Positions 18,001-41,178 of a stretch of DNA of 64,000 nt are shown here, one piece after another. The notes under the pieces were generated by a model that saw only the letters and a list, made by a program, of their open reading frames with translations, was not told the origin of the DNA and searched no databases. Made by a program: the position numbers and the translations under genes. This stretch comes from Amoebophrya sp. A120 (Eukaryota; Protista; Dinoflagellata), in NCBI GenBank assembly GCA_905178155.1, contig CAJINV010000008.1:3105303-3169302 (forward strand). Direction: 5' to 3'. Position 1 is the stretch's first letter, and each line of letters begins with the position of its first letter.

Positions 18001-21000
18001 GCCTGAAGACCGCACTGCTTCATCATCGTCGTAGCTAGTAAGAACACGCGACTTCATCATCATCTTCATGAGTTGTAATTTGATAAAGTGCTGGCACGTT
18101 ATAGTTAAAAGGTTTGGGGTTTAGGGTCTAAAGTCTTTATTTGTGAACTAGCTAACTCCTCAGAAAAGAAGCTCAAAAAAAGTCGAAAGCTGGAAGCCAA
18201 TCCGGGCGGGACTGTCGCTCTGGCCCCACCTGGGGCCAGAGCGACAGTCCCGCCCGGATTGGCTTCCAACTTTCGACTTTTTTTGAGCTTCTTTTCTGAG
18301 GAGTTAGCTAGTTCACAAATGAAGATTTTATATTAGCTATAACGTGCCAGCACTTGAAGTATTACATTAAATTACAACTCATGAAGATGATGAAGTGTGT
18401 TCTTATTAACTATTCACGACGACGATGAAGCAGTGTGGTCAGGCTGTCGGCACCAGGGTCGGATCTGCAGCCTCCTTCGAGATTCCGGCAACCCTGAACA
18501 GCTTTTTTCTTCGATCCTCAGAACCTATTTTTTCCGATCCTCAGAAGCTGTTTTTTTCGACCCTCAAAAATTGGAATATTCCGGTAGCGGTAGTAGTTGC
18601 ACCTACGATAGGAGCAGAACACGAACACCGTCCAGATCCAGAAGCGAAGAAAAGTGGAGGTCTCGTCAGGAGGAGTGTTTCCACCAACAAAACGCGAGCA
18701 GACCATTCTTTCCCCATGGAAATTGAAAATTCTACTTGTTTCACGGGGGTTGAAGATGAACAAGGAAGGCCTAAGGGTAAGGATATTCGTATGCCGCACC
18801 AGAGGAACTGCATCAATCGCACGGTTGCTTCGCAAACTGCCTTTCGCCGGCTCCTAGCCCGTATGCATTGCAAACACGTCTGCTAGAAGGTCTGGGCAAA
18901 AAGAAGCCCGCTAGCCTGTAGTGCTTGGCTGCCTGGCTGCATAATTGCAGGAAAAAAAACTGTATTGCATCTCCATGACCAACGAAAGCGCGACCTTTTC
19001 GGTATCCAAAGTGGACGCAATTTGAGCAACCAACGGAAAGCGTCCGATGATCAATTTACCATCTTTCGCTTGATGGCTGCACTGAAAAGGATACGCGACG
19101 TCGGTCAATAACATGATGCAGCGTGATCGCATGTTTGCCGACCCAAGAAGGAGCAAGACATTTGCAAAATGCATAATGCGGCAGGAGCGCGGACGGCAGG
19201 ATGACACGCGGCTGCCGCGCAGGGAGCTGCTGGCGAAGTACGGTCTGACTACGTTATCCAGAGACCAGCGCTTGGCGCGCTGCGGCTACAGACGAGCAAG
19301 AATGACGAAGGAGATCATGGGAGCGAACGACCAAGATGGTCAGGAGATGTTGAGCGGAAATGTCGAAACCACTGACCACGGGCTGAAGAGCGCACGACTT
19401 CTGCACGTAGCAGCAGGACGGGTCCAACAAGAAGGACAGCAAGAACCTCCCCCCTCAAGAATTCCGAACTTTCTCGACCGGCGCCCTTGGCCCGAGGATT
19501 TATCGCCAGTTGTCGTGGCATCCGATTGCGAGACGGATAGCATTTTTTCGGAGGAAGAGTACCTTGTCGCAGTCGCGGAGCAACTCACGGTGTGCACTCA
19601 CCAATACGTCACGGAAGCGCGGAGGTTGATTGTCCGGACGAACGACGGGATGATCAACACGATGCCGGGCGCGCCGAGCCATGGTGACCTTGGCGGCTCG
19701 TCTGGACACGACGTCGCAGTAGTTGGTGCAAATTGTCTTCTGGCACAAGCAGACGACGACCTGGATGAGGACTTTGGTGAAACTACAGAAAGTTTTCATC
19801 ATCAACATTATGTTGACGCAGCTTATGGATACGGCGCACGACGAAGACGCCGAACTGCCGTGGAGCGCAAACCCAACCGCACCGAGAGTACAAGAAGCCT
19901 TTTGCAAGAATCAAAGCGAAGAAGCGAAATGCACGAAAGGAAAGCTGAAAACAAAGCGATGCGAGATCAAGCCAAGCAGCGGCTGCAGGTGCGGTTGCGA
20001 AGCCTGTACGACACTTATCTTACCCGTGTTGCCATCCTGTTGAAGGACATCCAAAAGAAACGGAACCGCTATCACGCGGAGACAACTACGATTCTGAAGC
20101 CTAGTCGTCCAGCTCCCACGCAGCTGATAAAGAACGCTGCAGAGGTGGTCGTCGGAGCAAGCAGTTTCCACCGTGTCGGAACAAGCACAACGACATCACA
20201 GAAAAAGGGCATCGACAGAAGAACCCAGGAGAAGCTGTTGCGCAAGCTGGACTATGAAGCAGGCAAAAAACACAACGAGAGTCGCGAACGCAGTGCGGCC
20301 GAGATCGAGCGCATCGTGGAAAGGGGCCTGAGCCTATCAAGTGCAAAAATGTCTGGGTCTGGAAACTTGTAATGCTAAAAGTGAATGATAGGCGCACTGC
20401 AATACGCAGCTAGGCATGACAAATTTTTTCGCTGCCATGTCTTACGTATTCCGCATTGCAAACTGCGTTTTCGCATGAAAGGTAATAGGGCCTTTTGGTG
20501 CCTATGCAACACAGATTCTCGAATCATGCCAGACAAGCATGACAAACTTGCATTCTACTTCCAGACCCAGACACTTTTACATTTGATAGAGCAAGAGCCT
20601 CTACCGGTACTGCGGGACGGGGAGCGGCTGCGGGGACGAACTACCTGCGCGCCGCAGTGGGGGAAACAACGTGGCTCAGGATCATGAAGAAGGTGCGCAT
20701 CGTCGTGAGGATCACCTGCACGAGCTGCAGCAGCACTGCAGCACCGAGCTGGATCATGATCCTCTCGTCGACCAAGAAGAGCAGGATGAGGATGTACTAA
20801 GTGCTAGTGCTGAACAAGAAGCACAAGGACAAGCAAAAGCTGCACCGATAAATCGCCAGGACGACGAAAAAAACCAGAACGAGCAGGCACGTCTATCGCG
20901 AGGAGAACACAAATATCACCTAGATCAACCTGCTGAACGTCGATGGCAGCACCCGCGGTTCGCACCTGCCGGTCAGAAGCTCGTGCAGGCATGCAATATT

Positions 21001-24000
21001 TTCCGCCGCTTTTTGTACCTCAAAGCCGAACTGGAGCACAAAAAGGAAGTAGAAGAACACGTAGCTCCCTATTCTTCAGAAGAATTCATTCTCGGTAAAA
21101 ATAAAAGTTGTTCTTTCAACATCAGTGCAACTACAAGGTACTACGGGGACGATGTCGAACCGTGTACGAACAAGAGAACTTCCAGCTCAGGGACTTGGAC
21201 TTCTATCGGGAGGGTACAAGAAGAACAAGTCGGGAAAAAGCGGGCACCACACCTTGATGATGGAACGAGGAAGCGAAATCATGGTGATGTCGTGGCCCGG
21301 GCGCTGCACCAATTTTGGAATAACTCGCTGACTCTGTCTGACCAAGCTGCTCTGCTAAGTGTCTGCGACCACGTGGCCACGACACACCAGAACGCGAGTG
21401 CTGGAACCGAACGAAAATGTCGAAGCACTGGTGCGCGTAGAAGGTCTAGGAGCGGCGCGAAGAGGAACGGAACTCGAAGACCGGCAAGAGGCGCAGGCCT
21501 CGCCTTCGTTCATCCCGACGACGAAGACGACTACACCGCATCTTCCGAAGCGGAGTTTTCCTCCGAGGTTCGACCGGCAGGAGACGATTTCCGACGGGCG
21601 GGCGGCGAAATTGGTAGAATTGCCTCTGGCAGCACGACGAGGAAGAGGAACAGCAGTGGAGCAGGCATTACTAGGAATTGCAAAAGTTGTGTCGCGCTCG
21701 TACTGATTTTGAGAGGTCGTGCATTACAAGGGTGTAGATTTTTCCTCGGATCAACAAACTCGAACCCCATTTGCCAACATGCTGAGGAGAAAACTTGTGA
21801 TGCATTGCGATTTCCAGCTCCACTAGTCCTAGTGCCATACTTTTGCAATGGATAGTTGCAAGCCGTAAGCAAAAAGATTTTGACCCGCAGCCCCTTCCGC
21901 AGCCGCGGAACCTGGAGAGATTGATCCGGTGCTATCTGCGCTCATGTGTAACGACAGCGACTGCGGAGCTTGACGCCCTGCGATCCTCGTTTTGCCAGGT
22001 CGAGTCTAACTACCGTGCGGGACTGCAGAGGCAGGTCGACCGCGACAAGGAGCAGCAGGCCCTGCGCAAAAAACGGCAGCAGTACAAGCGGGAAGTGGAG
22101 ACGAAACGAGAAGCGGTTCAACATCTCCAGGGGTACAACAGAAACCTCAGCAAGGTCCCCGAGGACGGAAATTACAACCCCGACGGTCATATGCATAGGA
22201 AAATTTTTCTAGGTCTGGAAGAATGCAGTATGTCATGCTGTTGCTATAGATAATACCATGCATACGTAATAAATTTGAATCGTATTCGTAGGTACAAAAA
22301 TCTGTCTTTCATGAACGCCAAAAGTTACCCATTTCTTGCCACGCAAAACGCACTTTTCTCTTGCGGAGTAGACATTAAGAAGCTCTTGCGCAGTTGTCTG
22401 CGATGCTCTCGTGTTGTGCATTCTAGAGTATCTGTGTGATCCACGAGATGCATGATATATCAGCACACGCATCTCCCAGAGGTTCCAGAAACATTTGCAG
22501 TTGATAGACAGTCGAAATGATCCTGATCCATTTCTTCACGACGCCGACGGCCGCCGAGTAATGTTTGCTGCAGCCTCATCCGCAGTTTCCCGCCACAAAG
22601 GTGCAGCAGCTCGTGGAACAAATAACAGCGACGAGGACGACGATCGTGCAGGTTATGGAGAGGACGCCGACAGTCTTGCTCTGGACTCCGAACTGGATAT
22701 CAGCCCGCAGGGGAATACGGACTTGGCTAGTGACGCGCTCGGCGGTCGTTTGGGCTGCGAGCCGGTTTTACACGGGCAGCAGACTGTTGCGCAGCAGCTC
22801 GGAGCAGTGGAAGAGAAGTCGACCCCGGCGACGATTTGTCCGGGGGCGGCGGGCGGTACTCAAGCAGGCGAGGGCGGAAAATTTCCCAAGGAGCAAAGCG
22901 CCACGATACGGCGCCGGGACGAGGCCCTGAAGAACTTTTATAACCAGGACTTCACGAAGATGACGTCTGCAGACAGGAGCGAAAAACTTTTCACACTGAG
23001 CGCGCAGAGGCAGAAGGCGGCGCGGCAGGATGTGGAGAAACACAAGCGGTTCCTAGAGCAAATGAAAAAGCGGCGCAGCACAATGAAAAAGACGAAAGAC
23101 CGCGAGGCCCTGGATAAGGAGATCCGGAAAGTAACGCTTAAGATAAACGGTGGCGATCTGTTGGAAATCGAGGATCTCAGGCAAGGAGAAAATTGGACGG
23201 ATCTTTTGCAGGGACATATGTCCGCTCTGCAGGACCACAAGCTCGAACAGGAGTGGCACAAGAATTACATGCTCGATGCGCAATATGATCGTGAGAAAAA
23301 AATGTCTCAGTCTCACCTTTTGTTTAGCTTCCTTGACTTGAGACAGTCATGCCCCACATGTACGACATTCGTGTCGTCTTTTCTACGAATGTGTTTTCCG
23401 TTGTCGTGTCAGACGTTGATTGTGCTTTGCAGTTCTATTTGTTTCCGTGTCATGCTGTTGAGCATATTGGTTCTTCTCTTGTATTCCGGAGTCTGCATAA
23501 TGTTTGAGACTCAGACAGTTTTTTCTTGCGATATGCGAAACGTCTTGCGCGTGCACTCAGGGTACCGAGAGCACCACCTGCTGCGAGAGCAAATGCGGGG
23601 AGAAATTATGGGGAGAAAGCTGCAGGTCGTGCGGCACGCGGCATCTTCAGGCGGGCTCGCCAAAGCGATGGCGATGGTGATGCCCCAGCCGCCGCCGCGC
23701 GATCCCTACTGGCGCCTGATTCCGAAGCCGGATCCACGGAACCTGCAGCGGGGCAGCTGCACCGAGTTTGAATACGTTCCCTGGAACTTTCGGAGCACAA
23801 GAGAGTTGCACGTTATCCGTGCCTATCAAATGCAAATTCTAGATATGCGTCTGGGTTCTTTGGAAGAGTGCACGTGCAAGGCCTGTCATGCTCAATAAAG
23901 CACACTGACACTCATCAAGTCCTCCATCATGCGCATTTATTACCGAAAAGGCAGAAGCAGGCCCCTCTGTCTAGTTTGAAACCACACAGGAGAGGCAGAT

Positions 24001-27000
24001 TCGGCAACAAGCAGAAGCAGCTCAAAAACTTGTCATGCTTTGCCATAATTGATCGAGGCGAGGCCGTTCTTGTGATTTTTCAGTAAACACCATCACAAGT
24101 TTCTCGACTCAGACGCATGCGCAATCCATAGTGCCTGTCCCATTACTACGCTGTCCTTGATGCGGCACCGGGAAGAGCAGGAAAGAGAAAAACACATACA
24201 GAGCCAACTCAGGTTCGAACGGATGACGAGGCAGGCCGTTGCTCCTGGCGGGAGACGGGGTCATCCGCCGGAAGGAGCAAAATGGGACGACCACGACCAG
24301 GAAGAGCACCTGTGCCAGCATATCAAAGGGAAAAAAACCCCCTCCTCGTCCCTATACTAGTCAAGATGACAAGGCTGCTAGACAAACCAACAAGCTTTGG
24401 TTGTTCCGCATGACAAGTTTGGCCACATAGTGGGATCCTGTCGAGCAAGTTCAGCAGCGTCACAGATAATTTAAGTAGCGCATCGTGGTGATAGAAGATT
24501 GGGACATCAACACAAATTGTTCCGAAACATGACTAGAAAATGCTTCTCATGGGGCTCTGCTGGAGAAATATTATGAGCATGCAGATTTGCAATTGCATCA
24601 CAACTATGGGGTCGCGGGGACGTTTTTACATAGGATACAGAAGCTCCAGTCTTCACGAGGGCACCACGTGAAGAACCTGCAGGAGTGGCAGCTGGCCGAG
24701 TCGGCCGCTCGTCATTCATTTTACGGTAAAGATCATCGTTCTCAGCACCCTGGCGCAGGCACGACCAACAGCAGTACCAAAAGATGGGGAGCGGCAGGCG
24801 CCGGTGGAGTTCATCTGCTGCAAAGAGGGGAGAACCAACACCACCAACCAGCTGCGCGCCACCCGCTGCTGTTTCAGTACAACCTCATGGTGGACGAGCC
24901 ACCGCCTAACCCGCCCGAGCTGCAGCTGCTCTTGGAAGAAGACGGATCGGAGGACGAGGAGTTGCTAAACGAGGAAGAAGACGACGAGGCGCGCACCTAC
25001 CGGGCCATGAACGAGCGGCGGGAAGAGCAGGAGGAAAAGGAAGCCAAGGAAGATATTGCAAGGAAAAACTCCCCCTTCCCAAATTGAAAACGCATCCTTC
25101 TGAAAATCTGTGATGCAGATTTGTGACCACAAATCGGGTCCGTCTTGCAAGCAGGCACGCTCAGGCTATCCCTCACGCTATTCAGGCGATTTGTAATGCT
25201 GTAAGGCCTACAGAGTAGCGTAGCCGTCGACCATGCTGGGTGCCTATAACAAAAGGCCCCCGCCTAGGCTCAGGATCTGCGTGCATTCCTGTACAACTGC
25301 AACGCAAATCTGATTTGTGTATCCAAATCCAGCGTCAGAAACTTCGCTTCGATATGGAGACGGGGGAATTTTCCTCACAATAGAAGAGGAGGAACAGACG
25401 GAGTCCAGCACGGACTCGGACGACGTGGGACCCCGGTCGTGGTGGCAGCGGCGCTATCCTGTGCAAAAGTATCGTACTCGTATTGCAAATCAAGCATTGC
25501 AAATCTTTTTCTTGAGGTAAATCCGCATTACAAATTTCATTTCTCATTCTGAGGAAATTTGCAATGCATTTATACGAATGCGATACTTCTGCAGTGCATA
25601 GGCGCGGCAAGCACAAGGTCGGACCAGACGATGGCGACGGAGCAGCTGGAGCGGATGCGTTCGGGAGTCAAAAGATAATTTCCTCCAAGAATCTTCATAC
25701 GAAGCACGACAAAAATGACACTGGCAACAAGAACGCAACGACCAATAACGACTTTGAGTCGGTCACTAGCCTCACCACTGATAGCAGTTGGTCCTGGTCT
25801 CCATCTGAAGACGATGACTCTCGCTGGGGCGGCAAAAATACTCGCCGGCCTGCGAGAAGGTTTACTTCTATCGATGTGCAAAGCTCTTCCTCGACATCCT
25901 CCGGAACAACAAGAGAGGATGAACAGAAGTGCAATGTTGAAGTGGTTGCCAGCAGAGCAGGCAGTACTCCTGTGAGAGCGAAGATCCGCGGTGGAACTAC
26001 TACAACCAATATTACACAGCATTGTCCGACAAACACGTCAGCCGCCCTCGCCCAAAATAGCAGTTGTGGCTCCGCGGAGCTGCAGGATGAAGAGCGTGCA
26101 AGCCTCGAGGCCGTTGCGGTCGACGGTGCAGCTGGAGCTGGACCAGAGGTGGCAGGAGCGGTTTCATCTATTTATTTTCGCAGTAGTAAAACTAGCACGA
26201 CCAGCAGGAGAGAGGACGAGGACTTCTGCGCAGTGGGCGAGCAAGAACTGCAAGAGATGACCACTGCGGTGGAAAGAACTTTGGCGTGCAATGATGAGGC
26301 TGAGACTTCTCTGCCTCCTGCTGCTGCTGCAGAGCAGCGCCAGCCGCAGTCCTTCTTGATGTCCGCGCCGGGAATGTTGTTTGAGGAAAAACATAAAGAT
26401 ATCACCACTTCTTCTTCTAGCGAAAGACACGAACAAAAAATGATACCAGCGGAACAACAAGATGAACATGAACTACAGAAGGGCCAACAACAAGGGCTGT
26501 CCGATTGCAGTACTAGTTTGCTCGACGCTGCTCTCTTCAATACTGATCCTCCAATCTTGATGAAGATGCCACGACCAGCGGCGAACTTTCCCGTAGCGGC
26601 TGAAAACGGCCGTGACCTTGTCGCGGAAGCGGAACCGGGAGGTCCAGCAGGAGCGCTCTTTCCCGTAGGCGCGGAAGACGACCGTCATCAAGTAGATTTT
26701 GTCGCGGATGAACAGGAGCTGGCGGTCTCTGGTTTACGCTGAGTAAAAACGTACCCACACCAGAGTTGTAATGCAGATTTGCAAAGACAGGAAGACTTGT
26801 AATGCGCATCCCCATGAGAGCCAAGTCCAATCGTGTTTTGAAATTTGTGATGCTGTGAACAGGATGAGCAGATGAATCTGTGATGCGGCTGCATTTGCTA
26901 ACCTGCACTACACTACGAACTGCAACTTGTCATGCGTGATTCACAAAGCTCCTAGGTTTGTGTTGCAGAATCCCCATCCTGACTCTGGTGTGGGTACGTT

Positions 27001-30000
27001 TTTACCCAGGATATGGCTGTCCTGCACTTCTTTCTACGTCCCCATTTTTGCAGCTACAAGAACTACCGCCACCTCCCGCGACACCGGCAGCTGCTGCGGT
27101 GGAGGTGGTCATTAAGCCTGGTGCCAATGAACCTCACGACTGCACCAGCTACACGACACAAGCAAGAAGGAGAACCTCTACCACAGCTCCCGCTGGTCCT
27201 GGGGAGCAAGCTGCACATGAGGACGGCCCTCAATCTTTCGACCCCGTTGTCGTTGTTTCCCCGGCACGCTACGCGGCGAACTTGCTTCTGGAGAGGAATT
27301 CGAATTCTCATGGATTTGCGCCCGCTCCAGGTCCTGCAGCTCTTGCGCCCCCCGATGATGTTGGCGGAGGTGTAGCTGTTTTGTCAGGAAGACTGACGGG
27401 TAAGGATGATGTGAATTTTGTACGGGTCGGCCACGGGTCCGGGCACACCGGGCAGCCGAGTTTCGAAACGAATTCCAACGGACTGAAAAATACTGATTCA
27501 TCAGCTGGCACTATAGGTTCCCCTTCTTTGAATGAAGTACTTGTCGCGCCGCCCCCCTCCACGTCCTTTGTGGACTACACAGACCTTCTGCCCCTGGTGG
27601 CGGATCAGAGAAGTGAAAGGAAGAAGCTTCGAATGAAATTCCGGCTGCTCGACTGCAGCGCGATTGCGACGAATCGGATGGAACTTTTGCGCGCCGGGGA
27701 TGATGCACAAGAAGTAGATGCTGTAGCGGCCTTACAAGTCGCTGCTTCATCGTCCGCACGCACAGCCGCTGCATCAAAGCGAGACCAGAAGTTATTTTCT
27801 GCGAGCAGCAACAGCATATACGTACGACAGCTCCGCGCCCGGATCCGCAAGGAGCTCAGATTGCGTAGGAGGCAGCTCCTTGCTCAGCAAAAAAATCATG
27901 TATATGCGGCTAGACGAGGAAACGAAAGTGCCAAGATTGACTCGTCATCTTCCTCTTTCACAGCGGAAGAAGTAGAACAACACGAACGTCCAACTGTGGT
28001 GGTGCCTTTGCTGCGCAATTTTTTTCAGGCTGCGCGCGAATTGTACGAACTCGAGCAAGTTATGATAGTGCACAGCTCGTCGTCGTCCCCCTCTTCGTCA
28101 TTTGTCATCCACCAAAGTGGTGCCACAGTCAAAGCCTGTCCGGGTCCTTTGAGCATGTTTGCGTTAGAAGTCGCGGACACCCAAACTGCACTACATTCCG
28201 GATGCCGATTTGATGTCATGCAAAATCTGCATCCTGTACATACACATAGGTTGTATATCGTTTCTGTTGCTAGAAATGCTATGCGAATGAGGGGCAGGGG
28301 AGTTCTTGTGCACTCTCATACAGGTTGAGCTTCTTTCACGAAAAAGACCTACTTCGGCTATCTTGCCGTGTCTATTCCAACTCGGCACCGTCCTGCGCGG
28401 CGAGCTCTTACGTGCCTGCCAGCCGTTCGCCTGCCATATCAAAAGAAAAAAGTTCGTCACGATCACTCATGGGCATTTTTGCAATACAAAATTGTCTGTC
28501 ATGCGTAAAAATGCATCACAGCCACACTTCATAAGGGATCTCCCTAGTGTTTCTGCAATACAAGGAGAAGCTGCGATGCTAGACAAAGTTGTAATGCAAA
28601 ACCTGCAACTTCGTGACTGTGACAAACTTTTTTCTCTCCATATGCCACCGAACCACGCTACTAGTGATCACCCAGGCGTTCCGGGACCTCAATCGTGTGT
28701 TTCTTTTCTCCGCCATGTCTGCGTCGCCTCAAGAGGGCCCGACGACTATTAACGTGGCAAAGACCGGGAAAATAATCGTAGGCGACGCCGACGACAGTGC
28801 TGGTGGAACTTCCTCCCTGCCGCCTGTTTTTCAAGCAAAGTACCTCTCTATCCCCCCTGCAATATGACAATCAAAAGTGCGTCTCCCACCAGAACTTGGC
28901 TGCATTTGTATTGCAAAACTTCGTGATAAAAACACTGCCCATCTTGGTCTTGCATGTGTCCTCAGCGTCACAAATTTTTGATGGCGAATAGCAAAAGTCT
29001 GTGCTGCAAAACATGACAGCAACAGCCGTGTCTGTTATGCAAGAGATACATTGTGCTCTCTGGGTTCTGGAACGAAAGACTCGCAGTCCTTTTTTTCATG
29101 CAAGACAGAAACTTTGACTTTCATGACTATCTGCGTAAAGGTTTCCGAATAGGTTGCGTCTGAGATTGGGGTCGGACTAGCAAGGTACTTCAAAATCAAA
29201 TTCAGCCTGCATTACCATTTGAAAATCTACTTATATGCATCAGAAGATTTTGCAACTTCCGTTGTGGGGCCGCTTTTCATTTTGATAGGCGCCTGAGGTT
29301 CGTTTGCACCAGATTTTGCGGAAACGCTTGGCCGGCAACTCGTCGTCGACGCTGGGAATGCTCCGGCACCTGTGCGACAGACTTGCGCGTATACCCATGC
29401 GAGACCTGCCGCAAACACAACAGCGAGGCGGTGGAGAGCAATCTGTAGCTGCACCAGGGGACGACCAGGACGTGGACGCCGAGGCGGAGGACCCGGTTCT
29501 TTCCTCGTCATCCAAAGAAAACGACGCAGCTGCGGCTGTAAAAAGTCAGAAAGCAATCAAGGGCAATCTGGCTCGGGAGGCCGTCCGCCGAGCCAGACAT
29601 GCCTGCTTTCGGCATGCGGTGAGCGCCCAGGAGACTCGTCAAGCGACAGTGATCTTCGCATCTCCCACACGACCACCAGTTGTAGCCGATCAGTGGCGAG
29701 GTGTAGAAGTAGTTGCTGAAAGAGGTGGTAGTTGCCATAAGCAGAAAGCTGTACTACCTGCTCGTCAAAGTGGTACAAGATCTTGTTTGTCTCCGCGCGA
29801 TGTCGGTGCGGAGGAGCAAAGTGCTCCGTGGTTCAACGTCGTCGTGGGCGGCGGGGGGATAACGAGAAGTGCCACTAGTTGTATTAACTAGAGATGAATT
29901 CGTTCTGGCTTCTGTCGCTACGACCCCTTGCTAAAATTTCGGTGTCTACTTCGAAAACGTTTTCTCGACGAGCGTGCCGCGGAAGTAAAGATCCACACGT

Positions 30001-31072: not shown

Positions 31073-31797
31073 ATGACAGAGAAATTTATAGACAGGGAGT
31101 AGGGAGGACCCTGGAGGACCAGGGAGGATCAGGGAGGAGCGTTCATGTCTATATAGAAAAAGCATTGGGCATTTTTTCAAAATGTTGTATTCACCGATTG
31201 CATAGCGCATTTTCGGGCCAAGGCTACTTCAGCTTTCTGATAGCCATACCAATAACAACAGCGTGACGAAATTGAACAACGACGCAAATTGTTGAAGTAG
31301 CCACTTCAACAATTGGCGTTGTTGTTCAGTTTGCAACGTGTCACGCAGTTGTTATGGAAGTGGCTACTTCAATTCGCACAGGCAAACTGTTGAAGTTGCC
31401 ACTCCAAAAATTTGCGCTGTGCAAATTTTTGAGGTAGTCACCTCAACAATTTGCGTTTTTGCTGTTGTTCGGTTTGGGTTTGCAACGTGTCGCGCAGCTT
31501 TTGTTGAAGTGGCTCTTTCAACTTCGCGGAAAGTTGAGGCAGCCACTTGAATAGCAACTGCATGACAAATTGCCACAATAGTGGCAATCTATTGAAATGG
31601 AACAAAAATTGTTAAAGTGGCCACTTCAACACTTTGCCTTCAACAATTTGGGTTGTGCAAATTCTTAAAGAGCACCATACCGCCGCGATTGGGGTTTTTA
31701 TGATTTTTCGGCTTTCGGTTTTGGGTTTTATATAGCAAAATCGCCTCCCTGGTCCTCCCTACCCTGGGGCCCGGGATTTCATAAATTCTTCTGTAAT
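31073..31797. repeat. Intergenic foldback/MITE-like element with internal palindromic GTTGAAGTGGC/GCCACTTCAAC subrepeats
   Basis: Outer IR gtagggaggacc...agggagg (~31099-31128) vs cctccctggtcctccctac (~31744-31762); many gttgaagt/acttcaa units at 31285-31650. Confidence 0.7.
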
Positions 31798-32599: not shown

Positions 32600-35500
32600 A
32601 TGATGCGACCCATTCGCGAAGGGGAGCTCACAAAAACGGTGTTATCAAAAGGAAAAATCACCCCTCCCCATGTCGAAAAGGTATGTTTCCGAAAATTTGT
32701 GTTGCTGATTTGAGGTCACAAATCACATTTGTCTTGCAAGAAGACAAGGGCAGAAGCTTGCTCCCCATTATGGGATTGATTTGTCATGTTGTTGGGCCTA
32801 AAGGGGAGCCGTTTGCCATGCTGAACAACTAGACCCCTACGCCCCTACCTAGCCTGCGCATCTGGCCGCAGTGCGCAGCGCCTCTCTGCAATACAAACCT
32901 GATCTGTGTACACAAGTCCAGCATCAGAAGTTCCGTTTTGATATGGGGAGGGGGGATTTGTCTCTTCGATAGGTGTACTCTCACATTCACGACCACCAGT
33001 ACGAGGACGCGATTCGAATTCTGAACGAGTACATACCAAATGCAAAAACGTCTGGGTCTGGAAGATTGCGAGATTTGTCATGCACGTTTTCCATGACCCA
33101 TGAGGTCTGTCATGAAGGACATAGCATGACAGATTCTGTGAGAGTTCTATCATACCTATCCTGCATGAGAAACTGCCTCTCGATTAGGTCAAAAGTGGAC
33201 AGCTTTTGGTAATCATGCAACACAGATTTTTACATGATTCAGATTTAGCATGGCAAGTTGCTTTCTTCCAGACCCAGACACTGTTTTACATTTGATAGTA
33301 CAACACAGGGCGCAACAGCTCCTCACGGGCGAACTTCAGCCTGCTGGCCTACTGCTATTACCACATTCAGGACTTTGCAAGCGCCGCCAGCTACTACCAG
33401 CAGCTCTCGCACCTTTGCCCCGAGAACGAAGAGTACAAGGCCTACTGGATCCAATGTCTGGTGAAGGCCGGGCACTACGAGGAAGCCAGCAACCAGCTGC
33501 TGTCGATGAATTCAGGCGCTGGGGGCGCCGTGAGCGCCACCAGCTCCGACCTGCAGGAGCGCTTACACCACCTGCAGGCGACCATACACTACGAACGGGA
33601 CGAGCTACAGCTCGCAAGGAACGTTCTCACGGCGCCGAACGCCACGGAGGACCCGGAACAGAAAACCATCTTCGAAGCCTCCCTGCTCTGGAAGGAGCAG
33701 CGGTACGCGGAGGCGCTGAAGCTGTACCAGGAGGCGCTGCAAACCCTGGGCTTCGTGGCCTGTGTGGTGTACAACATCGCACTCTGCTACTACAGCCTGA
33801 AGCAGTATGGTCCTATGCATCGCAAATATGTAGTCCGTTCTTGTCATGCGAGATTTCGATTTGAAGCAGAGCAGGATCTGTCTTGCATGAACACGAGTGG
33901 CCAGTTTTTTTGATGTCATGTTGGGAAAATCATTTTGTCACGCGTTTTAGTACACGAATGAAAATGAATGTGCAAGAACAGGCCTCGATAAATAAGTTCT
34001 CATGCTGAAAGCCGTACCGGCTACTCTCCAATGCGAGCATGATCAGCAACACAAGTTACTTATTCCCAGGCCGAGACATATTTGCATTTGATAGGGCCGG
34101 CCTTGAAGCAACTCGCGGACATCATCGAAAAGGGGGTGCGCGAGCACCCCGAGCTCGCGGTGGGTGGGTCTGACTACAGCGGAAACAACCTGCCCACCCG
34201 GTCCGTCGGGAACACGTCGGTCCTGCGCGAGTCCGCGTTGGTGGAGGCCTTCAATCTGAAGGCCGCCATCGAATACCAGATGGAGAACAAGGAAGCCGCG
34301 CGCGACGCGCTGCAGGACATGCCCCCGCGGGAGGAGTCCGAACTGGATCAGGTCACGCTACACAACCTCGCGCTGATCCAGAACATGGAAGACAAACCCT
34401 CCGAGGGCTTTCGCAAGCTGAACTTCCTGCTGCAGCAGCAGCCCAGTCCCCCGGAGACCTTTGTCAACCTGCTGCTGCTATTATGCATTTTTGCAAATAT
34501 GTCTGCGTCGGGAAGAGGCGAGCCGAGTCTGTGATGCTCTGAGGTCATCACGTCGGAAACGCAAAATATTTCATCTGCACTACTATTGCATGAGCATCCA
34601 GAGAAACCTACTTTTTGCCATTCGAAGACGGTACTTTTCATTTACGAGGAGAGGCATGAAGGAGCCTTATCGAAACTTGTACCGCAGGTGCAGCGTGCAT
34701 TCCAGCACTTCTGGGTCATGCTAGACCACCTGCACGACAAGCCTTGCAGTCCTGCTCCAGGCCCAGACACATTTGCACTTGATTGCTGTACTGCAAGTAT
34801 AACTACTTTGACCTGGCCGCCGACATCCTGGCCGAAAACGCGGACTTGACGTACAAATATCTGAATCCTCAGTATGGCTTGTTCAGATGTCACGAAAATC
34901 TCAACTGTTGCAAGAATAAAATCGGGACTTTGTCTAGCATGAACAGCATGAAAAATAACCTACAGAGGCTTGCGCTTTTCGCAGTACAACGAACTTCGAC
35001 GAACGATTCTAATGGGATTTGCTGCGAGTGCCTGAACTTGTCAGCATGCGCATTCGTGTGAGAGAAGGCCAGATCGTGTATGATCTTCTTCTTTTGCATA
35101 CGTAGAACTACGAAGTACGAAGAGGAAGAGCAGAAATCTGCATTTTATAAATAGAACAGTTGACGAGATTGTCCCACCTGCGCAGTCTATACACAGGAGT
35201 TTGAGTTTCTGGATGCCTTGATTTTGGCCCAGAGTGCCCCCGAAGACGCCTTCAAGCGGTTCGAGGAACTTTCGGGGAAGTATGGAGTTTTCACAGCGCG
35301 TTACATTCTCAGTTGTTACATGTTGAATTTGCGAACGAAGGCTTCGGCCCTCGTTCTCCCCGGCAACTCCCCGAGTTTGGCCGTTCACCACTAAAACGGG
35401 CGGCGTTTCGTCAAGCTCCGGTGGCGATCGGTTGAGACACTAATCGCCAGCTCCTACTTACAAGCAGGAACATAGATAGTGCGCTAAACAGTTACTCGCT

Positions 35501-38500
35501 CGCCTGAAGAAGCGAGCACCCGATTGAATTTGCGACGCAACTAACAAAAGCGCAAGTGGGTAGCTTCCCTACGCGTCTCCCATTTTTACAAATCCAACAT
35601 AGACTGCTACGCTGTTTCGCCCTTCGAGAATTCGCCACGCGAAGCAGCTTGGTCGTGTGGTGGCTCAGGCTAATGGTAATGGCGATTTTGCGTGGCAAAC
35701 GCAAATCACATAACAGCTGACGATGTAGCAACGCTTGCGAGTTCCATAGGAGGCACGTCGACGCGTTGCGCCGCGGAACGAAGAACATCCAGGACGCCCG
35801 ACGGCAACGGGACCAGCCGCTGGTCAAGAAACATCTCGCAGAGTTCGACGACAGCTATCCTGTGCGAAAACGTCCTCGCCCCATAGTTGTCATGCAGCAA
35901 ATCTGCATGCTCAAAATGTTTCTCATGCGGAACCCCATGAGAAAGAGAAGCATTTCCTACTCCTAGTCGACGCGTTTTGGAATTTGTAATGCTCCATTCA
36001 GCATAATAAGTAGTAGGCTAGATTTGTGATGCTGCTGAACGACCTAAACACCAGCACTACACTACGAGACCAAACTTGTCATTCGCAACAACCTAAGCCT
36101 ATTCATTGATTTGCCCAGCAGATTTTCCATCTTGACTATGGGGTGGGGATGTTTTCACTGAGGATAACAGCCTTTCAAAATACATCCCTGTTCTGATGGG
36201 CCAGGCCAAGATCTACTGGGAAAAGGAAAAATATGGCGAAGTAGAGAAACTCTTCCGCCAGAGCGCCGAGTACTGCTCTGATGACGAATCTTGGAAGCTG
36301 AACGTTTATCAAAATGAAAAGTGCCCCACCACCAGAAGACCTCCGCACAGCCTGCATTGCAAGCGCTCCAAATGACCGTAGAGCTTTCTCCCTCTCTTCT
36401 TGAGCGCAGTAAGTCGTACTCTGCAAAACGAAGATAAACAGTGCGGAATCCGCGCATCCATCAGTGCGGAGCTGGCGGCTGTACTTGAGTTGCACCATCA
36501 GAAGTGCGAAACTTTCGCGACTGGGCGTACCGTCTTCAAATCAAATCTCATTGCCCAGTGAATAAATGAGTGACTGCATGAAGAGATGAAACAAAAACGC
36601 AACGCGTTTCGTTATATAATCTAGACCGGTACTATGCAACTCAGACCTGAACCTGATTGACATCACTTACAGTGTGGTGCTATGGTGCCACAGAGACTCA
36701 CTCCCGCTACTCTGGCTTGCAAATTTGTCATGCTATAACACGCAAGAAAGCTGCGGTGGCAAGTGTTTACATTGCGAACTTTTGCAGTGCAAAAAGTTCC
36801 ACATTCTGGGAGGGGGGCGGCACCTTTATTCAAAATGATAAAGCTGCGCACGTGTTCTTCATGCAAGAGAAGTTCAAGGACAGCATACGGTACTACGAAC
36901 CTTTCGTACGCATATGCATGGCAAATCTGTCTCAATCCGGAACATGGCAGCTTGTAATGCTATTCAAGCTGGACCACGATACATAGCATCTGTGTTGTAT
37001 GAACGCCGAAAACTTGCCCACTTTCTTGTGTTCCATCTATTACAAAGTGGCGTCTTCTTGTTACGCGGGACAGTAGGCGTTGAAAAATTCTCGCAAAATG
37101 AATATCTGCAATGTGGTTTTGTTTGCATTCCAGAGCAACATCTGCGTCGTGCAAAAGATGCATGGCGTTGCTTCTGCATTTATCTCGCAATGGAATTGCA
37201 ATTATTGCAAACGGGGATGCATGACCTACAGGGTCACTTTTCCAGACCCGGACATATTTGCACTCGATAACGCAAGCACCAGGACAACCTGCTTTCTGTC
37301 ACCGCAATTATCCTGGCGAATCTGTGCGTCAGCTACGTTATGACCAGCGCAAACGAGGAGGCGGAGGAACTGATGCGCCTGGTCGAAAAAGAAGAGGAAC
37401 AAAAGGACCCGACGAAGCCGGTTTACCACCTGTGCATCATAAACCTGGTAATATCGTAAGAAAAAAGTGTCTCACTGTAACGAGTTCTGCAAGATCTATT
37501 GCGATCACTAGTCGTTCTCGTTGTTCTACATGACAAAGAAAATTTGCAACGCATGTTCAAAACACAGGAACTCGAATGAAAATGAATTCAGTATCTATGT
37601 ATACATGTGCAGCCGGTCCGGAGGACAAACACTCCTGCGTTCGCGTTCCATTTTATCATGAGTGACAAGTTTACAGCGAAACACTTTTTTCTTGCGATAG
37701 GTGATCGGCACACTGTACTGCGCCAAGGGCAATTTCGAGTTTGGTATCTCTCGGATCATCAAATCGCTGGACCCGCTGGAGCGAAAACTCGGCGTGGATA
37801 CTTGGTATAAGGGAATTGATTGTGGGGAACAAGAAAAATCTCAATCCCAGGAGCTCCTCCACTAAATTTACATGTACTTAGTTAGTATACGTAAAATAAA
37901 AAAGTGCACTCGAGGGTGCTGATTTGTCGCCACAAGTCAGGTTGATGCATTGACATTGTTGAAGAAAGTAAGGCAAAAATGCGCGAGCCACTTTCTTGTA
38001 GGCCGTCAATCCTTCTTCGGCTTCGGCTTGTGGCACAGCAGAGGATTTATAGAACACGCAATTCCAAACAGCTTGATACGTATCTACTTCTTTACAAACA
38101 GCGACCCTCGTTACCGTCCTTGTGCGATATCGAGACCAGGACGAAGCCAAAACGAAGCCAGGCGGGCAGCTTTGAAAAGCGCCCGCCTGTGTTGAAAGTT
38201 TTATTTCCGATGATGATCCTCCGAAAAGTTTCGAGGGCTCCCCGCCTTTGGGCCTCCCTCTGTTGCCTGCAAGGCGGGGCGCCCTTTGTGCCGCGTGTTC
38301 TGTGCCGCGCGTTCATTGGCCCCGGGCGCGTCCGTCGCGTTGTGCATGTGGAAGAGCCTGCGACGCGGCGTGCCGTCGGGCTCAATTTTTGAGCCGCATG
38401 GCAGTACAAACGCGAAAAAGCGCTGGCCGTCGCAAGGCTTTGAGTGTTTCGCATGCCAAGGGGGCGGCGCCGCCTTCGTTTTGCCTGGTGCCAGCTGGTT

Positions 38501-41178
38501 TCCCTGGTAAGCTCCAGCGCCTGGCGCAGTGTCTGCATGCGGGGAAGCGCCGGGCGCATGGGGGGGGCTCCCGGAAGGCGGGGCCCCGCGCGTCTCGTCC
38601 CGGGCATCGGGCGGGCTCGCGAGTGGGGCGGGTCGCGCGCCACCGGGAAAAACGAAGGGGCCCCCTCTTTTTGTAGGAAAAGCGCGCAGGCGCCGTGCCC
38701 CGGGCTGGAAGTGCACGCGCCTCCCGCTCGCATTGGCGCGCCCTGCGCGGGCCTGCTTCCGCGAGGGCCAAAATGTTGAAGGTATGCATGGCGACCGCGA
38801 GAGAGGCCATGTGCGTGGCTGCTCATTTTAGGGCCTTCTCCCCTGCCTGCTCGCTGGCCCGGGCCCCTCGATACCTTCGCCCCACCCGGGCGCCGCGGCG
38901 AAGCAACCCGGGCCCGGCCCTCCCATTGTTTGGTCTCTCTTTTGCAGAATAGGCAGTCGCCTGGCGGCAGGCACCCTCCCACCCGGCCGCCCGCAAGCCA
39001 GAGCCAGCGAGGCCTGGGAGAAAGAATTTATAGAACACGCAATTCCAAACAGCTTGATACGTATCTACTTCTATGCCCCTGAGCAGGCTTGCAGACCGGT
39101 TGACGGATGAAAACCAAATATTTCTTGCCAGAATGCAGATAAGAAATCTATCAATGGCCTGTGTCTAATTGCACAACTCCTCCTTCTGCTGACTGTTCCA
39201 CCTCGTCCCCCAGGTGGTGCGAGTATGATTTTCACCCACACCCCAGAAATTACTCTTGCATAGCATTGCGCGTGCTGATGTCCGTCTGGTCTCAGTGTGC
39301 GGAACAAGAGGAACCCCCCTTATTTTGATAGCCTTAGCCTGACCCTGATGCACTTCTTACGATTTGTATCTACACATAGTATGCCTAGAAAGGCGGAAGG
39401 GCAGCACAACTCGCATGATACACTCGCCGCGGTGCGGAATTTCAGATCTGCGTTGTTTAAAGCAAAAACCGGATCGCGTCTGTGCAGAAAATGCGCGACC
39501 GATGACATGAGATGATCAACAACCAACACGACTCTGTACTGATTTTAAATATTCTGCTCTGCTACGCGCTCATCACAAAACAGAAAAATACTGTGAACAG
39601 GCAACTGAATAAAGGAGTAGAAGGGGGGGCAGTTTGTGGTGTACTTTCAACCGAAAGAACACAAGGAAGTCCGGGTGTTTGATTTGTAAACTTTTTCTAC
39701 TTCAGGTACTACGCTAAGCGATGTTTCTATCCAAGAAAAAACTGTCACAGCATGCTTATGCACACTTTTGCTGGTTATTTTGGCTGTGATTCAGCAACAC
39801 AAGTGAATTCGGGCCTGGATCAAAACTACCTACGTAGACACAAAATCTGTAATGCCAATGCGCACATGATCATGATCTTGTTTCTCAAGGGAAAATAAAA
39901 ACGCATGAACCTGCGCTCCCCCTCCCCAGCTTCTCCCGCATGACAGAGCTTGTCCGTCTTGGTGGTCTTACGGCGTAAACTGTAACTTCTGTGGCACTTT
40001 TTTCACGGCATAGCTCCCTCGCGCTGGGAGAGACCTTGTCGAAGAACATGATTCTGCTGAAAGACGAGGCGTTTGAAGACATTTTGACCTTTTTCGACTC
40101 CGTCGCGAGCTATGCATTGTAAATATATATGTAGTCCGGGTGCAGGAGCCCCCGGTCGAGAAAGATGTAAACTTGTGATGCGGAAAATTCGAAAACACGC
40201 AAAAACAAAATCTTGTGGTGCACAGTGAGCTAAAGATGGACGATTTGGTTTCCAAAAGATAGCACTTCTTTTGCAGATGACTGAAAGTGGACATGGAGAA
40301 CTGAAGCCTCCGCAGAGTGAATTTGTCATGCGCTGTGGGCATTCGTTCCTTCAGAAGCTTTAAGCTTCCCACAAAGAAACTGCACTACTTACAAGTGTCT
40401 GCCTTCTTGCTCCGGAGGACCCAGACATTTTTGCAGTTGAGACGAGCGCGGGGAAACACATAAACGCCAGTCTGAACCATATTGAGAGGAAAAATCCCCC
40501 CTCCCCATATCGAAACGGTATGTTTCCGAAAATTTGTCTTGCTGATTTGAGACCCCAAATCAAGTCTGTCTTGCAAGAAGACAACGCCGCAGGCTCTGCC
40601 GCACTATGCAGGCGGTTTGTCATGCTGTTGGGCCTACAGCATAGACGTTTCTCATGCTAAGCGCCTAGGCCAAAAGCTCTCTACTCAGGCTTGGCAGGAG
40701 CCTGCAGTCCTCGCCAGCAAGACAGATCTGATTTGAGTACGCAAATCCAGCATCAGAAACTTCGTTTTGATATGGGGAGGGGGGATTTTTCCTTTTGATG
40801 AACCACCTTGACCGAGATGACAAGACCAAAACCGTTGCGATATCCTGAGTAAAAACGTACCCACACCAGAGTTGTAATGCAAATCTGCATGCTGAAAATG
40901 TTTCTCATGCGGAGCCCCATGGGAAGCATTCTCCAATCGTGTTTTGCAATTTGTCATGCTCCAATCAGCATGGTATGCTAGATCTGTGATGCTGCTGAGC
41001 TAGCTCAAACAGCACTACACTACGAATCCAAATTTGTCATGCAAAACAGCCAAAGCTTGTGGATTTGTCTAGCCGATTCCCCAACTTGACTATGGTGTGG
41101 GTACGTTTTTACTCAGGATATGCGAGGGAAGCCCGACTGCTAAAGAAATTTTTTCTGAAAATCAGTCAAGATTTTTGA
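32600..41178 (+). CDS. IFT70: Intraflagellar transport protein IFT70 / TTC30 / DYF-1 / fleer (TPR protein), 16 exons, 658 aa
   Basis: Exons 32600-32642, 32977-33033, 33303-33813, 34099-34481, 34790-34872, 35197-35280, 35754-35855, 36172-36306, 36846-36912, 37275-37451, 37705-37804, 39706-39727, 40018-40110, 40448-40479, 40806-40840, 41126-41178 total 1977 nt with consistent phases. Family motifs: IIEKGVREHPELAVG, LVEAFNLKAAIEY, DMPPREESELDQVTLHNLAL, PPETFVNLLLLYCKY, WKLNVAHVFFMQE, LANLCVSYVMTSANEEAEELMR, HLCIINLVIGTLYCAKGNFEFGISRIIKSL, DTWYYAKRCF. Confidence 0.97.
32643..32971. mobile_element. Introner family A, IFT70 intron 1
   Basis: DR GGTGT/GGTGT; also readable as GT-AG 32639-32972. Confidence 0.96.
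33034..33297. mobile_element. Introner family B, IFT70 intron 2
   Basis: DR GTACA/GTACA; taccaaatgcaaaaacgtctgggtctggaaga ... tcttccagacccagacactgttttacatttgata. Confidence 0.96.
33814..34093. mobile_element. Introner family B, IFT70 intron 3
   Basis: DR GGTCC/GGGCC; tatgcatcgcaaatatgt ... acatatttgcatttgata. Confidence 0.93.
34482..34784. mobile_element. Introner family B, IFT70 intron 4
   Basis: DR GCTAT/GCTGT; joins NLLLL/YCKY. Confidence 0.93.
34873..35191. mobile_element. Degenerate introner, IFT70 intron 5
   Basis: DR CTCAG/CACAG; tatggcttgttcagatg ... cacctgcgcagtctata; joins YLNPQ/EFEFLD. Confidence 0.85.
35281..35748. mobile_element. Introner (TATGGA-type, 468 bp), IFT70 intron 6
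   Basis: DR GGAAG/GGAGG; tatggagttttcacagcgcgttacat ... atgtagcaacgcttgcgagttccata. Confidence 0.9.
35856..36166. mobile_element. Introner family C, IFT70 intron 7
   Basis: DR ACAGC/ACAGC; joins EFDDS/LSKYIPVLM. Confidence 0.95.
36307..36840. mobile_element. Introner (534 bp), IFT70 intron 8
   Basis: DR ACGTT/AAGCT; tatcaaaatgaaaagtgcc ... ggcacctttattcaaaatgata; joins WKLNV/AHVFF. Confidence 0.9.
36913..37269. mobile_element. Introner family B, IFT70 intron 9
   Basis: DR ACGCA/ACGCA; joins EPFVR/KHQDNLL. Confidence 0.94.
37452..37699. mobile_element. Introner family D, IFT70 intron 10
   Basis: DR GGTAA/GGTGA; tatcgtaagaaaaaagtgtctcactgtaa ... ttacagcgaaacactttttttcttgcgata. Confidence 0.95.
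37805..39705 (+). other. Canonical GT-AG intron (1.9 kb), IFT70 intron 11
   Basis: TG/GTATAAG ... ctttttctacttcag/G TAC TAC GCT AAG CGA restores DTWYYAKRCF. Confidence 0.9.
38045..39072. repeat. 934-bp GC-rich insertion bounded by a perfect 47-bp direct repeat
   Basis: atttatagaacacgcaattccaaacagcttgatacgtatctacttct at 38045-38091 and 39026-39072. Confidence 0.9.
39728..40012. mobile_element. Introner family D, IFT70 intron 12
   Basis: DR GTTTC/GCTCC; tatccaagaaaaaactgtcacag ... ctgtggcactttttttcacggcata; joins KRCF/LALGE. Confidence 0.9.
40111..40442. mobile_element. Introner family B, IFT70 intron 13
   Basis: DR CGAGC/CGAGC; right end acccagacatttttgcagttgaga. Confidence 0.9.
40480..40800. 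mobile_element. Introner family A, IFT70 intron 14
   Basis: DR AACCA/AACCA; tattgagaggaaaaatcccccctccccatatc ... gatatggggaggggggatttttccttttgatg. Confidence 0.95.
40841..41120. mobile_element. Introner family C, IFT70 intron 15 (perfect 28-bp TIR)
   Basis: DR TGCGA/TGCGA; tatcctgagtaaaaacgtacccacacca and its exact reverse complement. Confidence 0.97.

Follow-up and report, generated by a model that had tools for sequence, protein, structure and literature searches.

Evidence for a fixed, staggered cut beside the terminal inverted repeat of intron-forming elements in Amoebophrya sp. A120

We analyzed a stretch of 64,000 nucleotides from the genome of the dinoflagellate Amoebophrya sp. A120 (contig CAJINV010000008.1; hereafter, the window), in which the gene for IFT70 (TTC30/fleer family; 32600..41178, + strand, 16 exons, 658 amino acids, gene model GSA120T00005987001) adjoins a second gene, here called gene 1 (about 1-29888, + strand). 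The two are consecutive A120 gene models, and both are interrupted by elements that are bounded by a terminal inverted repeat (TIR), TAT...ATA, and flanked by a direct repeat (DR) of 5 bp. Junctions in spliced contigs and residues of a gene model very probably define the intron as N-TAT...ATA-NNNN, starting 1 nt before TAT and ending 4 nt after ATA; this degree of confidence applies to the register alone. A fixed register of this kind is a rule for re-annotation, and residues change wherever the two repeat copies are mismatched.

The spliced evidence for IFT70 is a 1945-nt contig of run X1 (record 3; depth 24.6), which lacks all 15 introns of the gene and thus skips 14 out of 14 TIR introns, the remaining one (intron 11) being GT-AG. 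The RNA status of this and the other runs is a guess from the run classification, no run among those listed being recorded as RNA. Excision of all 15 introns returns exactly one frame of 658 codons, which is identical to the A120 protein P0001. This protein maps onto 16 exons at 32600-41175 and matches solved IFT70 structures (phmmer E 3.5e-217); exon 33299-33808 is 100% identical to it and 63% identical to the A25 orthologue. Another contig of X1, with depth 6.6, continues unspliced through intron 13 (40081-40472) and may represent a retained intron, a precursor or DNA. With c as the offset of the 5' cut, counted from the initial T of TAT, the introns of IFT70 are the following, with coordinates at c = -1 for the TIR introns:

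32642..32975 (+): IFT70 intron 1, TIR 32643-32971, perfect DR GGTGT; the contig joint skips 334 nt and the cut can slide over 6 positions.
33033..33301 (+): IFT70 intron 2, TIR 33034-33297, starting with TAC; perfect DR GTACA; the contig joint skips 269 nt.
33813..34097 (+): IFT70 intron 3, TIR 33814-34093, DR GGTCC/GGGCC; contig joint, cut -2..0.
34481..34788 (+): IFT70 intron 4, TIR 34482-34784, ending with ATT; DR GCTAT/GCTGT; contig joint, cut -1 or 0.
34872..35195 (+): IFT70 intron 5, TIR 34873-35191, DR CTCAG/CACAG; contig joint, cut -3..0.
35280..35752 (+): IFT70 intron 6, TIR 35281-35748, DR GGAAG/GGAGG (35276-35280, 35749-35753); cut -1 or 0, with GT...AG ends at -1.
35855..36170 (+): IFT70 intron 7, TIR 35856-36166, perfect DR ACAGC; contig joint.
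36306..36844 (+): IFT70 intron 8, TIR 36307-36840, DR ACGTT/AAGCT (36302-36306, 36841-36845); joint 36305 to 36845 with the upstream allele, cut -1 or 0.
36912..37273 (+): IFT70 intron 9, TIR 36913-37269, perfect DR ACGCA; contig joint.
37451..37703 (+): IFT70 intron 10, TIR 37452-37699, DR GGTAA/GGTGA; contig joint, cut -1..+1.
37805..39705 (+): IFT70 intron 11, canonical GT-AG with no terminal TIR seen; donor G|TATAAG; contig joint.
39727..40016 (+): IFT70 intron 12, TIR 39728-40012, DR GTTTC/GCTCC (39723-39727, 40013-40017); joint 39726 to 40017 with the upstream allele, cut -1 or 0.
40110..40446 (+): IFT70 intron 13, TIR 40111-40442, ending with AGA; perfect DR CGAGC; contig joint.
40479..40804 (+): IFT70 intron 14, TIR 40480-40800, ending with ATG; perfect DR AACCA; contig joint.
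40840..41124 (+): IFT70 intron 15, TIR 40841-41120, perfect DR TGCGA; contig joint.

The 5-bp DR is perfect in 22 of the 45 elements of the window and imperfect in the rest, and the imperfect ones tell which copy remains in the spliced product. At all seven imperfect DRs of IFT70, the X1 contig carries the upstream allele at positions 1-4, and three of these seven are non-synonymous (the call for intron 12 comes from the sequence and the X1 joint). The initial annotation had proposed, from mismatched repeat pairs at introns 6, 8 and 12 and in gene 1, that the upstream copy is exonic and encodes the residue expected for IFT70. All these pairs are present in the sequence (AGTCA/AGGCA in gene 1 at 16399-16403 and 16712-16716), and the expected residues recur in homologous proteins, KRCF in the A25 orthologue and in two outgroup proteins, LNVAH and KH in A25. 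Where the downstream alleles KRCS or KA might have appeared, the spliced contig has the upstream allele instead. The proposal holds for positions 1-4 of the repeat and fails at position 5, which is supplied by the downstream copy.

Gene 1 behaves in the same way. Among the joints listed, five come from runs X2-X4, four of them at imperfect DRs, and all four keep the upstream allele. Ten of the 15 listed rows were disregarded as repeat-to-repeat joins from run X7. Among the joints listed for the contigs of X2-X4 and the other runs, none lies at 16404, 16940, 18862, 20335, 21672 or 22190, and the KKVTF site (16399) has no spliced cover among them and no homologue that we could find. The raw-read runs X8-X10 returned no exon reads here, only 1, 18 and 171 reads, respectively, on repeats. 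Reads of X9 and X10 cover the element families of 40841-41120 and 26735-27013 with other flanks, and 93 of them pass from one element end into unique sequence with no skip; these two runs probably come from another strain under the same label.

Overall, 20 RNA-contig junctions could be compared with each possible cut: c = -1 is compatible with 20/20, c = 0 with 19/20, c = -2 with 11/20 and c = -5 with 8/20. Nineteen of them come from the joint tables and the twentieth is a contig piece that resumes at 29292 (depth 4.9); under the leftmost alignment convention, no other value than c = -1 yields this piece. At nine junctions, the cut must lie at -1 or to its right. The gene model P0005 (2302 aa), which covers the 3' part of gene 1, needs c >= -1 at 21672, 22190, 23284 and 24321 and is incompatible with c = 0 at 20335 (K instead of Q), 22190 (R, obtained with c = -1 only) and 28863 (P instead of T). 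At 22190, a slide toward GT-AG would favour the cut at 0 (TA..AG), and it is thus unlikely that the residue in the model reflects a preference of the aligner. Because a cut at TAT is excluded at three junctions, position 5 of the repeat in the mRNA derives from the downstream copy. The introns of gene 1 with evidence from the gene model or from contigs are:

20334..20592 (+): gene 1 intron, DR GAGCC/GAGCA, differing at position 5; on the basis of the gene model (K), the cut lies at -1 or to its left, and 0 is excluded.
22189..22510 (+): gene 1 intron, DR GGTCA/GACAG (1/5 identical); gene model compatible with a cut at -1 only.
28862..29291 (+): gene 1 intron, element 28863-29287, DR TGCAA/GGCGC; the RNA contig piece resumes at 29292, cut -1 only; the gene model excludes 0.
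23283..23537 (+): gene 1 intron, DR CGCAA/TGCGA; joint 23282 to 23538 in X2 and X3, upstream allele, cut -1 or 0.
24320..24641 (+): gene 1 intron, DR CAGCA/CAGAA; contig joint, cut -1 or 0; the related elements at 26735 and 40841 have the reverse orientation.
26734..27017 (+): gene 1 intron, DR TGGTT/TGGCT; joint in X2, X3 and X4, cut -1 or 0.
28060..28324 (+): gene 1 intron, DR CAAGT/CAGGT; contig joint, cut -2..+1; a cut at -2 would allow GT-AG ends.

The two poorest repeats, identical at 1/5 (22190) and 2/5 (28863) positions, are removed at the same -1/+4 register as the others, which indicates that repeat identity does not place the cut. The earlier placement of the cut, at or near TAT with the 3' cut 4-5 nt past the hairpin base, is supported in that the cut is staggered and keeps a constant place next to the TIR. 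Of its options, the data select a 5' cut 1 nt ahead of TAT and a 3' cut 4 nt beyond ATA.

To look beyond the window, we scanned metagenome contigs for the TIR motif and obtained 151 loci; the 80 listed all came from one related assembly and contain relatives 66-84% identical to elements of the window. Searching this assembly without regard to the DR gave 165 elements. Their coding strand was assigned by a classifier whose accuracy in cross-tests was 75-100%, some orientations being wrong. Counts were done on 163 of them, after the two with a DR identity below 2/5 had been dropped. The first intron base at the register is A in 49, C in 36, G in 54 and T in 24 elements, and the last is A in 40, C in 48, G in 57 and T in 18; no covariation between the two was found in the 163 elements. 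GT..AG ends occur at the register in 1/44 window elements and 5/165 others. These results bear out the proposal that the junction is independent of sequence, with free first and last bases and no pairing pattern.

Two regularities seen in IFT70 did not extend to other elements. The observation that positions 1 and 5 of the repeat never differ is true of IFT70, where mismatches fall only at positions 2-4 (0, 3, 1, 5 and 0 at positions 1 to 5; 9 mismatches in 14 elements, P-value = 0.007 taken alone), and not of the 31 elements of gene 1 (6, 3, 7, 8, 4) or of the related assembly (5, 8, 7, 6, 6 in 163 elements, P-value = 0.94 against uniform). The IFT70 pattern is a small-sample effect. A preference for G or C at the last intron base, noted by eye in 13 of the 14 IFT70 introns, was also rejected, as it is 64% in the 163 others against a background of about 55%; G/C at this base is the same as at position 1, and mismatches there are mostly G to A. 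For one element with a mismatch at position 5 (L084), a homologue search found no match among 19 candidates.

According to Table S4 of Farhat 2021 (PMC7789003), the nine commonest non-canonical intron ends of A120 all start with NT, as the register would produce. We rejected this agreement as genome-wide support: a simulated slide toward GT-AG gives 60-69% of NT starts whatever the true cut (182 elements).

On balance, we favour a degenerate U2-type spliceosome, positioned by a predicted terminal hairpin at the N-TAT...ATA-NNNN register, as the explanation of the whole set of observations. The register puts T, A and T at +2, +3 and +4, as in the canonical donors of the window, and this speaks for a degenerate spliceosome no less than for the nuclease/ligase reaction put forward initially, which the data do not demonstrate. 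Both canonical introns that we examined, 37805-39705 and 10084-10378, begin with GTATAAG, the former alone with RNA support. T at +2 is present in 185/185 oriented elements, in comparison to 176/185 at the mirror position (P-value = 0.0035, Fisher test), and the single variant at +3 is a purine. An A at -7, considered as a branch-point candidate, is invariant in the 45 window elements but differs in 3/141 others, of uncertain orientation. The terminal pairs of the TIR have a predicted probability above 0.5 in 33-35 of the 45 introns. The elements do not have the ends of ordinary U2-type introns (GT/GC and AG): only T+2 is fixed, and +1, -2 and -1 are free.

What is reported of the A120 splicing machinery is compatible with such a donor. 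In section 10 and Table S6 of Farhat 2021 (PMC7789003), the U2-type spliceosome of A120 is nearly complete: PRP8, U2, U4, U5 and U6 are kept, and U1 RNA and snRNP27 are given as not detected. The loss of SNRNP27K in yeasts goes with a preference for U at +4 of the donor (Parker 2023). In A25, TIRs start with TTA and the nine commonest non-canonical ends all start with TT (Farhat 2021), which would again place T at +2 and A at +3.

Introns of this kind could form and be removed in three steps. As the anatomy of the elements suggests, a DNA transposase or integrase would insert the element in either orientation and duplicate 5 bp of the target. The element plus 5 nt, split into 1 nt at the 5' side and 4 nt at the 3' side, is then removed, as the 20 junctions show and three of them pin down. 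In the mRNA, the first four bases of the repeat are thus those of the upstream copy and the fifth is that of the downstream copy; the two copies can differ. In this removal, the TIR at whichever end lies 5' would offer U+2, A+3 and U+4 as a donor, to be read by U6 without U1, the hairpin would hold both ends together, and the fixed spacer of 4 nt would replace the AG acceptor. More tentatively, the A120 spliceosome may have given up G+1 and the 3' AG for most introns in favour of U+2/A+3(/U+4) and a 4-nt ruler, so that any insert would be a working intron.

Several observations weigh against the register or against the spliceosome as its reader. Only three junctions, all in one gene, decide between -1 and 0; one of the three is a contig end at depth 4.9 without a listed joint row, and the gene model may derive from the same transcriptomes as the runs, the A120 annotation having been built from transcript alignments (Farhat 2021). 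Runs X1-X4 all come from a single sample of a single study, and contigs conceal minor alternative cuts. The asymmetry at T+2 is mostly A-to-G at the mirror base, 7/9 mirror variants still allow a U-G wobble, 6/9 come from the 44 window elements, and one call of a 5' CAT (L002, score -1.2), being under the threshold for orientation, was left out. The TIRs show no excess of G-U over A-C pairs (27 versus 33 in 32/44 window elements, 75 versus 100 in 141 others), and selection thus gives no sign that an RNA hairpin matters; the hairpin is predicted and its role unproven. The spliceosome normally pairs G+1 with G-1, whereas the first and last bases of these introns are free and do not covary.

A different reader of the same register, doubtful but possible, would be a spliceosome-independent endonuclease that measures from the hairpin base at -1/+4, the exons being joined by an RNA ligase (of the tRNA or IRE1/XBP1 type) or by machinery of the euglenid type. 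The endonuclease/ligase introns of tRNAs and HAC1/XBP1 have a conserved structure at the cleavage site (bulge-helix-bulge or stem-loops). In the elements described here, pairing of the flanking DR bases is at chance (45/185 at the first outside pair), and no structure is shared outside the TIR. The free junction bases of the 163 elements and the fixed distance from the predicted stem would suit such an enzyme. The same is true of the reports that U1 RNA was not detected in A120 (Farhat 2021) and that the overhangs of euglenid introns on either side of a paired motif are constant, N3 and N5-6 (Nomura 2025, PMC12501133), these introns leaving circles, not lariats (PMC11282704). However, the donor resembles the canonical donor of A120 minus G+1, T+2 is more conserved than its partner, the G-U excess is lacking and no candidate endonuclease or ligase was identified; in addition, 15% of canonical A120 introns share the layout of inverted and direct repeats (Farhat 2021), which suggests one machine. 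It is improbable that the cut is not unique, being mostly at -1 and, in some introns or molecules, at TAT or at a nearby GT-AG. Although 19/20 RNA junctions are also compatible with 0, the intron at 28061 is also GT-AG at -2, contigs drop minor forms and the legend of Fig. 3 in Farhat 2021 describes sites variable relative to the hairpin, all three junctions informative for position 5 exclude 0 and none excludes -1.

Removal by a transposase-like reaction, which had also been suggested initially, or excision at the DNA level is very unlikely. Transposases treat the two TIR ends identically; the overhangs of these introns measure 1 and 4 nt around a TIR that is itself symmetric, and their placement is set by the transcript regardless of the orientation of the element. 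Furthermore, two runs contain 90-92% of the intron-bearing stretch. What the TIRs and the 5-bp duplications do indicate is an origin by a transposase or integrase reaction (also Gozashti 2025, PMC12130899). We give even less credit to the joints being template switches of the reverse transcriptase across the hairpin, between short repeats, rather than splicing in vivo. Such switches are a known artefact, hairpins with direct repeats are their classic setting and only cDNA-derived contigs were seen; nevertheless, removal of all 15 introns yields the single 658-codon frame of an IFT70 homologue, meaning that the cell must remove them, and the same register is also found at junctions that have 0-1 nt of microhomology.

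The introns of IFT70 and gene 1 are introner elements already published by Farhat 2021 (PMC7789003), whose A120 introners have inverted repeats starting with TAT, followed by seven looser bases and an A run, DRs of 3-5 nt and no GT-AG, and are spliced in RNA-seq. All five features that we compared (A120 genome, TAT TIR with A run, 3-5 nt DR, non-GT-AG removal and organization in families) were found. Close family members carry different 5-mers, each matching its own insertion site, as expected of a target-site duplication (TSD), and on this ground we rejected that the downstream repeat was carried along with the element. Orientation agrees with the coding strand in 37 elements and disagrees in 42 (79 clear calls); we therefore rejected an orientation set by transcription, as an RNA intermediate would give. 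Two elements of a single family, at 24321 and 26735, point in opposite directions, yet both keep the upstream allele. Insertion in both orientations with like cutting implies that insertion occurs at the DNA level and that removal follows the transcript, which argues against both transposase-like removal and reverse splicing. With TIRs, a TSD of fixed length, short size and either orientation, the elements have the features of miniature inverted-repeat transposable elements (MITEs). In the excerpts available, Farhat 2021 found no cognate autonomous transposase in A120, and Gozashti 2025 (PMC12130899) reported TIR-flanked integrase-like elements.

Three further elements or inserts were noticed in the window. 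An element of 751 nt (17860-18610, TAT...ATA) is nearly all nested palindrome, with a central pair of 100-nt arms at 97%, and the frame is kept under the same -1/+4 rule. A TIR-bounded element with internal 50-nt repeats lies at 31087-31782, between gene 1 and IFT70 and outside known coding sequence. Within intron 11, a GC-rich insert that may be a nested mobile element is framed by a 50-nt direct repeat (38042-38091 and 39023-39072), whose copies are 981 nt apart and 98% identical.

Gene 1 contains at least 31 TIR introns, and its model P0005 has no Pfam match. The spliced stretches 3-10080 and 13020-28860 are without stops for 2405 and 3478 codons, respectively. On this basis, the annotated 2302-aa model, which starts at 19650, probably misses its 5' part. 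A stop closes the frame at 12288, and the frame opens again at 12436; no TIR element was found in this segment, which may be an unrecognised intron or a gene boundary.

The elements themselves are thus known, and what the analysis adds is a testable cutting rule. In the open literature we found no published cut register for Amoebophrya introns, and none in the excerpts of PMC12130899 or PMC11453091. The closest match is with the introners of Farhat 2021, from the same organism and with the same TAT inverted repeat, DRs and lack of GT-AG; there, the border position was unknown or variable and the DR varied in length, whereas in the present analysis the DR always has 5 bp and all junctions tested agree with -1/+4. 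The nonconventional introns of euglenids (Nomura 2025, PMC12501133; PMC11282704) are likewise derived from TIRs and TSDs, lack GT-AG and are cut at a constant spacing from a paired motif, the 3' overhang being the longer one, and the DR ambiguity was settled there with introns that cannot slide (PMC12501133). Their signature, N3-CDG...CH'G-N5-6|R, with overhangs of 3 and 5-6 nt, a preference for a purine at the exon start and reported circles (PMC12501133; PMC11282704), differs from that of A120, which has overhangs of 1 and 4 nt, the motif TAT/ATA and ends N-TAT...ATA-N4. In Fritillaria borealis, non-canonical introns derived from MITEs, also with TIR and TSD, are removed by a modified U2 spliceosome whose tolerance has changed; their preferred ends are AG-AC and AG-AT (PMC11282704), whereas the first and last bases are free in A120. 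Introners of Micromonas, Aureococcus and Polarella are also non-autonomous DNA transposons in which the TIR gives one splice signal and one TSD copy lies in the intron (PMC11282704; PMC12130899). Those of the algae and Polarella have GT/GC-AG ends in which the TSD supplies the AG, whereas the A120 elements need no AG.

Tens of thousands of introns that lack GT-AG ends are removed in Amoebophrya, in which no U1 RNA is detectable, and the repeats that flank these introns make their borders slide. A fixed register gives exact ends to seek in the excised introns, whether these are lariats, circles or linear molecules, and accounts for the spread of the elements through exons at low cost. If the degenerate spliceosome is the right reading, any TAT...ATA insertion, in either orientation, would work as an intron at once.

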